64,000 nt of DNA from a virus (taxonomy: Duplodnaviria; Heunggongvirae; Uroviricota; Caudoviricetes): the IMG/VR virus record IMGVR_UViG_2698536476_000008, one strand, 5' to 3'. This document shows positions 26,237 to 26,852 of the stretch, piece after piece. Positions within the stretch are counted from its first letter, which is position 1; every line of letters begins with the position of its first letter. Under the pieces are notes generated by a model. That model had not been told where the DNA came from, did no database searches, and was given only the letters and a program-made list of their open reading frames with translations. Made by a program: the position numbers and the translations under genes.

Positions 26237-26569
26237 TTAGTTACCGCTGATAGCGCGGTTGTAATCATTAACGTTGCGATTCTTCCTGTTAATCCCCATC
26301 AGCATCGTTTCTGTATCGAGGATATACGCTGGCAGATCATCAAAATATTCACTGCTAAACTCTGGCATCCTGCACATAAATGCACTTTTGGGGGCAGGGT
26401 GGTTAACCTTTGTCGGCGTCGGCGTTAAATTCGCTGATCGACTGCCGGAGCAACCGCTGAGTATCAGCAGGAATGCGCTGGCGAACATTACCCGCCGCAA
26501 CCAGTTGTTTCTGAACTTCAGCTTTTCGTTCCATTTGCCTGTCAGCATATTTGGCTTGTTCTGATTCAT
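26237..26569 (-). CDS. Lipoprotein, o-spanin-like (start likely internal Met)
   Basis: Lipobox LILSGCSG; Pro/Thr-rich mature part; overlaps the upstream gene out of frame. Confidence 0.5.
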   Translation of the reverse strand: MNQNKPNMLTGKWNEKLKFRNNWLRRVMFASAFLLILSGCSGSRSANLTPTPTKVNHPAPKSAFMCRMPEFSSEYFDDLPAYILDTETMLMGINRKNRNVNDYNRAISGN

Positions 26570-26852
26570 TTTTCACTTCCTGGCTGTGAAAATGTTGCTC
26601 TGCTTTGTTCATCGTCTCAATGGTCTGGTTAAGATCCATTATTGACTTATCACGTTCCTTAACAGCCTGATCAAGACTGCCAATTTTCTCCATGGCTTGC
26701 TTTAGCTGATGACGTTCCCATGCAAACCCAGCACCAACAAGTGCGCAAATCAGAACAAGAACACCAGTAGCAGCAAGTTTCTCCTTCAAAGACAAAGCTG
26801 TTTTTAATGTAGAAAAGAATGACATGTCTTCCTCCTGAAGAAAAATTATCAA
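26403..26852 (-). CDS. Membrane-anchored coiled-coil protein, i-spanin-like (149 aa)
   Basis: N-terminal TM VLVLICALVGAGFAW then coiled coil; lipoprotein gene overlaps its 3' end. Confidence 0.5.
   Translation of the reverse strand: MIIFLQEEDMSFFSTLKTALSLKEKLAATGVLVLICALVGAGFAWERHQLKQAMEKIGSLDQAVKERDKSIMDLNQTIETMNKAEQHFHSQEVKNESEQAKYADRQMERKAEVQKQLVAAGNVRQRIPADTQRLLRQSISEFNADADKG

Follow-up and report, generated by a model that had tools for sequence, protein, structure and literature searches.

The two overlapping minus-strand genes at positions 26,237 to 26,825 of the 64,000-nucleotide viral DNA analysed here (hereafter referred to as the window) are very probably the ppfA and mlp genes of a P1-like phage-plasmid, encoding a two-component spanin of the 'overlapped' architecture. 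The spanin pair is already catalogued in the literature and is not new. The original prediction had described a membrane-anchored coiled-coil protein and an out-of-frame overlapping lipoprotein with the architecture of an i-spanin/o-spanin pair, and the anchor, the coiled coil, a lipobox with a residue other than Asp at the +2 position and the out-of-frame overlap were all recovered in the present analysis. The observations reported here concern the anatomy of the pair, its orthology to P1, its conservation, the selection on both reading frames, its unlinked position and the location of the lysis genes elsewhere in an identical replicon. The lysis role of ppfA and mlp is, here as well as in the published work, an inferred one. 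The coordinates of the relevant features are listed in Table 1.

Table 1. Features of the ppfA/mlp locus and its surroundings in the window
Feature	Position	Strand	Details
upfC orthologue (PAAR motif)	27662..27946	-	First of the co-oriented string; 100% identity to P1 UpfC; phrog_281
upfB orthologue	26865..27710	-	92.5% identity to P1 UpfB; phrog_1559
Shine-Dalgarno AGGAGG of ppfA	26831..26836	-	Upstream sequence TTTTTCTTCAGGAGGAAGAC-ATG
ppfA orthologue, i-spanin candidate	26403..26825	-	140 aa + stop
Single N-terminal transmembrane segment of PpfA	26721..26777	-	LAATGVLVLICALVGAGFA, codons 17-35; top Kyte-Doolittle 19-mer
Shine-Dalgarno-like AGGAAG before mlp codon 1	26576..26581	-	Upstream sequence TCACAGCCAGGAAGTGAAAA-ATG; AGGAGG in D6-like relatives
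ppfA/mlp overlap	26403..26569	-	167 nt; mlp frame +1 relative to ppfA
mlp orthologue, o-spanin candidate	26237..26569	-	110-aa precursor + stop; predicted 71-aa mature lipoprotein
Lipobox of mlp	26450..26461	-	Codons L37-S38-G39-C40; Cys40 predicted lipidated; Ser41 at +2
upfA orthologue	25833..26225	-	Last of the string; 98.5% identity to P1 UpfA
Terminator-like hairpin and T-run	25805..25821	-	Just after upfA; CCAACCGGCTATGTTGG-CCGGTTTATT
Origin iterons	25580-25681		Five, 21-22-bp spacing, about 125 nt beyond the hairpin
repA	24614-25498		
Further iterons	24351-24614		

The window is assigned to a P1-like phage-plasmid because its region 25500-28300 shares 96-98.6% DNA identity with the phages P1, P7, SJ46 and RCS47 and its positions 20000-32000 (12 kb) match the 97-kb E. 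coli plasmid NZ_CP065205.1 at 100% identity. The i-spanin candidate shows 98.6% amino acid identity to P1 PpfA over 140/140 residues and the o-spanin candidate 97.3% identity to P1 Mlp over its full length; the full-length orthology of both partners, together with the conserved synteny, places the pair in the P1 PpfA/Mlp family. The flanking genes upfA, upfB, upfC, uhr, hrdC (rdgC) and dmt are those of P1, as are the lengths of the two proteins, the 167-nt overlap, the Shine-Dalgarno sequence, the immediate gene order upfC-upfB-ppfA-mlp-upfA and the place by the plasmid origin. The differences from P1 comprise two substitutions in PpfA (I45M and E128Q) and three in Mlp (S7N, V32A and T36I), owing to which the lipobox context reads ILSGC in the window and TLSGC in P1. 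The adjacent replicon differs as well: its RepA has no more than 42% identity to that of P1, and an additional T5orf172/GIY-YIG gene lies between parA and repA.

The P1 genes have been described as spanins from several sources. Table S1 of Kongari et al. 2018 (PMC6139136) lists P1 (NC_005856) as 'ovl', with gp064 as the overlapped i-spanin (OIS), 36 residues being assigned to its TMD part and 104 to its periplasmic part, and gp063 as the overlapped o-spanin (OOS), with 110 aa, of which 39 constitute the signal and 71 the mature protein. The pair makes up the 'P1' family of overlapped two-component spanins (Summer et al. 2007, through PMC9025707; Table S1 of Kongari et al.). Bednarek et al. 2022 describe ppfA and mlp of P1 as partially overlapping genes in a separate operon unlinked to the other lysis genes, their spanin identity being predicted. 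The P1 RefSeq record labels mlp as 'Rz-like spanin', and the pair is annotated as Rz/Rz1 or 'Rz-like spanin' in several GenBank records. The two genes are among the 21 extremely conserved genes found in a survey of 77 P1-like phage-plasmids. In Bednarek et al., ppfA is called the 'o-spanin' and mlp the 'i-spanin'; the sequences and the table of Kongari et al. indicate the opposite assignment.

The open reading frame of the i-spanin candidate (26403..26852, minus strand) opens at a TTG codon and has an in-frame ATG at 26825, which is almost certainly the real start of ppfA, since AGGAGG sits 5 nt upstream of it and P1 ppfA shares this start; P1 gp064 is marked in Table S1 of Kongari et al. with a Shine-Dalgarno sequence identical to that of ppfA in the window. 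The interval 26237-26852, originally proposed for the pair, does contain both minus-strand reading frames, but its outer limit at TTG 26852 gives way to the likelier ATG. Residues 17-35 of PpfA constitute its most hydrophobic 19-mer (Kyte-Doolittle mean 2.35) and lie inside a long helix of the AF2 model, whereas the predicted periplasmic part of 104 residues is 35% charged and is devoid of cysteine. A single membrane-spanning domain at the N-terminus, with most of the protein in the periplasm, is the arrangement of a type II i-spanin, the orientation of PpfA being predicted. A 3-4 heptad pattern runs through residues 41-79 (L41, A44, I48, L51, V55, R58, I62, L65, I69, M72, E76 and F79) and was equalled by 3 out of 5000 shuffled sequences. 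The AF2 model, which was built from a 17-sequence alignment and has a mean pLDDT of 70.6, consists of a helix at 13-110, a break at 111-119 and a helix at 120-137, so that G112-P119 forms the predicted hinge before a short second helix. The model and the heptads thus indicate the helical or coiled-coil periplasmic domain with a hinge expected of an i-spanin; the transmembrane segment, the heptads and the long helix agree on the membrane-anchored coiled-coil protein that had been proposed. PpfA also matches phrog_89, annotated as 'Rz-like spanin', with an E-value of 1.1e-25.

The lipobox of the second gene was located with the regular expression [LVI][ASTVI][GAS]C, which matched LSGC with the Cys at residue 40. 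The end of the signal peptide reads FLLILSG, followed by C40 and then by Ser, in agreement with the lipobox LILSGCSG given for the out-of-frame overlapping lipoprotein in the original prediction. As a Ser follows Cys40, Mlp lacks the Asp inner-membrane retention signal, and the Ser41 at +2 predicts sorting of the lipoprotein to the outer membrane. The lipobox with its Cys and the absence of Asp at +2 are features of an o-spanin; the signal peptide, however, comprises 39 residues when counted from codon 1 and is atypical in its unusual length, as is also remarked for gp063 in Table S1 of Kongari et al. ('Too long signal sequence'; 'LipoP server finds cleavage site at 39th position'). The mature Mlp has 71 residues, including six prolines and one further cysteine (C66), through which one subunit of the pair carries the kind of periplasmic Cys that serves covalent homodimerisation in spanins. 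Mlp matches two families annotated as 'Rz-like spanin', phrog_30284 (E 1.2e-76) and phrog_456 (E 3e-5).

Three possible starts of mlp were considered. The ATG at codon 28 was rejected because the Met is not conserved, being replaced by V, L or A in the relatives. A start at codon 24, which is TTG in the window and ATG in the D6-like clade and has no Shine-Dalgarno sequence, would yield a canonical signal peptide of 16 residues, reading M/L-RR-VMFASAFLLILSG up to the lipobox Cys. Codon 1 was retained because its ATG and an AGGAGG or AGGAAG Shine-Dalgarno sequence are kept in all the clades, the ATG being shifted by one codon in the D6-like clade; CAGGAGG precedes the mlp ATG at three of the related loci (L008, L010 and L011). 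Therefore, codon 1 is considered the likelier start, with codon 24 as the alternative.

The overlap of the two genes contains the last 55 codons and the stop of ppfA, as well as the region encoding the Mlp signal peptide and the first mature residues, and mlp extends 166 nt beyond the ppfA stop. Among the embedded, overlapping and adjacent arrangements known for spanin genes, the pair belongs to the 'overlapped' class. Relatives of the i-spanin include a clade with about 60% identity, found in Salmonella (including serovar Oranienburg), Cronobacter and Klebsiella aerogenes, and the more distant full-length homologues P0078 (E 1e-21) and P0084 (E 3e-8). At every relative locus fetched, covering D6-like Salmonella, Cronobacter, Klebsiella and two more distant lineages, an intact +1 open reading frame of about 110 aa with a lipobox begins at the same place. 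These frames share a basic N-terminus followed by FLL(T/S/I)L(S/N)(G/A/S)C, with lipoboxes of the form LNGC, LNAC, LSAC or LSSC, and the further motifs FMCxMPxF, DDLPxYIxD and INRKNxNVNxYN. F33, L34, L35, L37, C40, S41 and C66 of Mlp are invariant in an alignment of seq­uences from seven loci in which identity falls to 35%.

Nei-Gojobori counts for the window against three of the relatives of about 60% identity were used to examine selection in both frames. In the non-overlapped part of mlp, pN (0.12-0.13) is well below pS (0.5-0.8) in the mlp frame, while the two control frames show pN greater than pS; judged by these counts, the mlp frame is under purifying selection in this part. Within the overlap, pN (0.13-0.16) is lower than pS (0.49-0.58) in the ppfA frame and not in the mlp frame, so that the PpfA C-terminus is the constrained partner there and the n-region of the Mlp signal peptide drifts. 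Nucleotide identity to the clade of about 60% identity is 0.75-0.80 in the overlap as against 0.60-0.61 in the part occupied by ppfA alone.

A comparison with the well-known spanins reveals likeness in design rather than in sequence. As in P2 LysB/LysC, the prototype of the overlapped pairs, the o-spanin gene starts within the i-spanin gene in the +1 frame and continues past its stop, the sizes (141 and 96 aa) are similar to those of PpfA and Mlp and the topology signals are alike. However, LysB and LysC are located in a lysis cassette whereas ppfA and mlp are unlinked, and LysB has two periplasmic cysteines (table of Kongari et al.) where PpfA has none. The embedded pair Rz/Rz1 of phage lambda follows the same model of a type II coiled-coil subunit and a short, proline-containing outer membrane lipoprotein; Rz1, like Mlp, has a Cys for an intermolecular disulfide, and Rz/Rz1 act after the endolysin. 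The whole of Rz1 lies within Rz, whereas the overlap of mlp with ppfA is partial and the mature product of mlp has 71 aa; Rz/Rz1 stand at the end of the S-R-Rz late lysis cassette. The scores against the NCBIfam models of P2 LysB (TIGR03495; 19.5 bits, cut-off 92.75) and P2 Rz1/LysC (NF038368; 14.2 bits, cut-off 27) were sub-threshold, and hhalign comparisons of the PpfA alignment with P2 LysB (probability 1.4%) and lambda Rz (probability 2.3%) were not significant. Thus, with no significant similarity to lambda Rz or P2 LysB, the pair constitutes a 'P1' spanin family of its own by sequence, in line with the table of Kongari et al., and this family appears to be Rz/Rz1-like in its working and P2 LysB/LysC-like in its gene architecture.

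Searches of Pfam identified no family at the cut-off for either PpfA or Mlp, the sub-threshold matches being coiled-coil noise (GAS, Phage_scaffold), and a PDB sequence search returned nothing relevant. The relatives of the i-spanin match phrog_89, phrog_214 and phrog_739, all annotated as 'Rz-like spanin', and phrog_456 of the same annotation is common to 7/7 o-spanins, with a best E-value of 7e-6. Since phrog_89 and phrog_30284 probably include the P1 proteins themselves, the support drawn from these two is partly circular; the weak matches to phrog_214 and phrog_739 (i-spanin) and phrog_456 (o-spanin), which every divergent member of the family shares, appear mildly supportive of a spanin. 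A tblastn search of phages for distant PpfA homologues within a classical lysis cassette returned only P1-like phages. An exhaustive HMMER search for PpfA homologues gave 37 matches, and the full-length match with usable context (P0078) again belongs to a P1-like element of about 90 kb with the same synteny, while the contig of P0084 is too short for its gene context to be judged. Long multi-stretch matches such as P0081 and P0087 were discarded as coiled-coil noise.

The position of the pair agrees in large part with what had been reported for this region. The pair is indeed next to repA, with upfA as the only gene between repA and the end of mlp at 26237. It had also been placed in the plasmid-maintenance region, which it in fact abuts, being a member of the separate string upfC-upfB-ppfA-mlp-upfA. 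In this string, upfC overlaps upfB, a gap of 39 nt separates upfB and ppfA and a gap of 11 nt separates mlp and upfA; the upfC product scores 26.0 bits (E 1.1e-5) against PF05488 PAAR_motif, which is under the cut-off of 27. The terminator-like hairpin stands between the string and the origin iterons, and as the string ends at this hairpin before the iterons, the pair is regarded as belonging to a transcription unit separate from the maintenance module. The order dmt-rdgC-uhr / upfC-upfB-ppfA-mlp-...-repA-parAB is kept in the clade of about 60% identity, and the lineage of P0078 retains the dmt-rdgC and upfC-upfB-ppfA-mlp portion of it.

The absence of a holin or endolysin near the pair, also remarked upon in the original prediction, was confirmed for the 64-kb window, in which tblastn searches with six P1 lysis proteins (Lyz, LydA, LydB, LydC, LydD and LydE) produced no match. 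These genes were located in the rest of the genome by means of the identical plasmid NZ_CP065205.1, which carries lyz-lydD-lydE and lydC-lydA-lydB outside the part represented by the window, 34-44 kb from the pair. In P1, the clusters lyz-lydD-lydE (20.0-20.9 kb) and lydC-lydA-lydB (30.4-31.5 kb) are likewise remote from mlp-ppfA (63.4-63.9 kb), so that the pair stands apart from the lysis genes in P1 as well as in the window; a place in a lysis cassette is typical of spanin genes and not obligatory for them. For this pair, a site next to repA and distant from the holin and endolysin genes is, therefore, a known and conserved feature of the P1-like organisation.

This position raises the question of whether the pair might be an envelope module with a non-lysis role, expressed from the prophage-plasmid and resembling spanins in topology only, with superinfection exclusion, envelope remodelling or a plasmid-linked function as examples. 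Besides the location of the pair beside oriR/repA, such a role would be in keeping with the promoter data. The P1 late-promoter motif AAGTKAYT-N5-TANNNT, derived from the annotated LPpro, LPlyz and LPdar, has four occurrences elsewhere in the window against 0.11 expected, but this Lpa-type motif is absent from 25800-28400, upstream of the pair included, even when one mismatch is allowed in the -22 box. Only predicted sigma-70 promoters, P1ppfA and P2ppfA, both inside upfB, are annotated for the pair in P1; the former is sequence-identical in the window and the latter has several substitutions. A generic sigma-70 scan gave fewer matches than expected (2 against 5.2), none of them a convincing promoter on the minus strand ahead of the string. 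Further, a genome-wide CRISPRi study (PMC10695390) grades both genes as non-essential for P1 plaques, with EOP values of 0.24 and 0.19 for mlp and 1.3 and 1.2 for ppfA; in the same study, lambda Rz is essential in one of the two assays. On the other hand, a type II coiled-coil protein together with an out-of-frame overlapped outer membrane lipoprotein is a specific signature of two-component spanins, the pair is entered for P1 in the table of Kongari et al., both the partners weakly and independently match other spanin families, and the PAAR motif of upfC together with the similarity to T4 ORF 5.4 noted in the P1 record suggests a lytic-phase operon. A purely non-lysis module is, thus, distinctly unlikely.

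A wider set of departures from the spanin assignment, comprising a non-lysis role, an additional role in the prophage state or a spanin-independent disruption of the outer membrane by P1, is likewise unlikely, if slightly less so. Sigma-70 promoters could nevertheless drive transcription of the pair, perhaps in the lysogen as well, and the two proteins could serve a second role in the envelope in the prophage state, as there is no late motif, the string sits by the plasmid origin in all the P1-like lineages examined and plaques are formed despite the knock-down.

Mlp and PpfA might alternatively modulate the timing of lysis instead of disrupting the outer membrane. The mlp note in the P1 RefSeq record reads 'possibly involved in regulation of lysis (by homology)', and the lysis system of P1 is unusually complex, with several holin and antiholin-like proteins (Bednarek et al. 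2022). This annotation is, however, older than the spanin concept, both topologies fit spanins while neither protein resembles a holin or an antiholin, and the pair has been reclassified in the spanin surveys, all of which render a timing role very unlikely. That the lipoprotein frame arose by chance, the genuine gene downstream being no more than the 46-aa open reading frame at 26237-26377, as called by RefSeq PGAP and some GenBank records and likewise by gene callers on the related contigs, is extremely improbable given that the frame of about 110 aa with its start and Shine-Dalgarno sequence, the FLLxLxxC lipobox and Cys66 is conserved down to 35% identity, that the mlp frame alone is under purifying selection in the non-overlapped part, and that a gene-caller bias against overlapped o-spanins is documented (196 o-spanins missed among 528 two-component systems).

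For PpfA and Mlp as a two-component spanin, a mechanism may be outlined after the lambda Rz/Rz1 model, from which the topology, the lipidation, the complex and the role in lysis are all inferred. PpfA would enter the inner membrane by its one N-terminal helix (N-in, C-out), with the helical coiled-coil stalk reaching into the periplasm. Mlp, synthesised with a lipoprotein signal, would be lipidated at Cys40 and, owing to the Ser at +2, sorted to the outer membrane, where it would sit in the inner leaflet and probably dimerise through the invariant Cys66. The two proteins may then bind each other in the periplasm to form a bridge restrained by the murein meshwork. Upon degradation of the cell wall by the unlinked SAR-endolysin Lyz, under the control of LydA/LydB, the PpfA/Mlp complexes would be free to complete lysis by fusing or disrupting the outer membrane.

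As a discovery the pair counts for little, since a published spanin catalogue already has it and its unlinked place is a textbook peculiarity of P1. The annotation of such loci is nevertheless of practical consequence. On P1-like plasmids, PGAP labels the i-spanin as 'hypothetical' and cuts the o-spanin to 46 aa devoid of the signal peptide and the lipobox; with this annotation, the lysis function of hundreds of phage-plasmids from E. coli and Salmonella would escape automated surveys. The conservation observed here provides targets for mutagenesis, namely C40, S41 and C66 of Mlp, the hinge residues G112 and P119 of PpfA and the conserved start with its Shine-Dalgarno sequence. Ahead of the core of the Mlp signal peptide lies a conserved and very basic extension of 27 residues, which might serve to regulate the export of the o-spanin and so be more than a by-product of the overlap.

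The spanin pair of the window (26237-26825) corresponds to positions 71058-71646 of the Escherichia coli plasmid NZ_CP065205.1, where the i-spanin is labelled by RefSeq PGAP as a 'hypothetical protein' and the o-spanin gene is represented by only a 46-aa 3' fragment that is devoid of the signal peptide and lipobox (NZ_CP065205.1; L014). An identical truncation of the o-spanin was made by the gene callers on the related contigs L008, L010 and L017. In a sentence on the P1 spanins, the Introduction of PMC9025707 refers to ppfA as 'o-spanin' and mlp as 'i-spanin'; judged by the sequences, in which the lipobox lies in mlp, and by Table S1 of Kongari 2018, these labels are inverted.

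At codon 24 of mlp (window 26500-26498), P1-type sequences have TTG, whereas members of the D6-like clade have ATG. A start at this codon would yield a canonical 16-residue lipoprotein signal peptide, as against an atypical 39-residue one; no SD was found upstream of codon 24.

The overlapped +1 lipoprotein ORF is retained in the more distant PpfA homologues P0078 and P0084 (L015-L017, contigs of about 91-94 kb; L018), with LSAC or LSSC as the lipobox. The order dmt-rdgC ... upfC-upfB-ppfA-mlp is conserved in P0078 and the genes downstream differ. This has the look of a deeper branch of the P1-like phage-plasmids. A ppfA/mlp pair 99% identical to that of the window is also present on L005 (JAFAFU010000017.1), a 5858-bp contig that bears the label 'MAG: Bacillota bacterium' and is almost certainly P1-like enterobacterial DNA, either mis-binned or contaminating.

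The spanin-containing string begins with upfC, which encodes a PAAR motif (PF05488, E-value 1.1e-5, 26.0 bits, slightly below the 27-bit cut-off), and its similarity to T4 ORF 5.4 is noted in the P1 record. UpfC may be a tail-spike tip protein encoded in one operon with the spanins. A P1 late-promoter motif, AAGTKAYT-N5-TANNNT, was built from LPpro, LPlyz and LPdar; the window carries four exact matches, against 0.11 expected by chance, and these are probably the late promoters on which Lpa acts in this element. The spanin string has none of the four in its vicinity.

Features located in the window
Feature	Position	Strand	Remarks
Late-promoter motif	1835-1853	-	exact match
Late-promoter motif	20893-20911	+	exact match
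Late-promoter motif	20955-20973	-	exact match
T5orf172/GIY-YIG-family ORF	23512-24321	-	269 aa; between parA and repA
Further iteron copies	24351-24614	both orientations	downstream of repA
repA	24614-25498	-	
Iterons	25580-25681		five, spacing 21-22 bp; upstream of repA
upfC	27662-27946	-	
Late-promoter motif	39990-40008	-	exact match

RepA shares only 42% identity with its P1 counterpart, but the products of the flanking genes are P1-like (parA 99.7% and upfA 98.5% identity); on sequence comparison, the repA region is a swapped replicon within a backbone otherwise of P1 type. The T5orf172/GIY-YIG ORF is absent from the P1 reference, in which the incA iterons occupy that place. The Cronobacter-type relative L010 carries a homologue at the same position as in the window. 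Three tRNA genes, Asn-GTT, Thr-TGT and Met-CAT, are present downstream of dmt (31989-32142 and 34143-34218, + strand).
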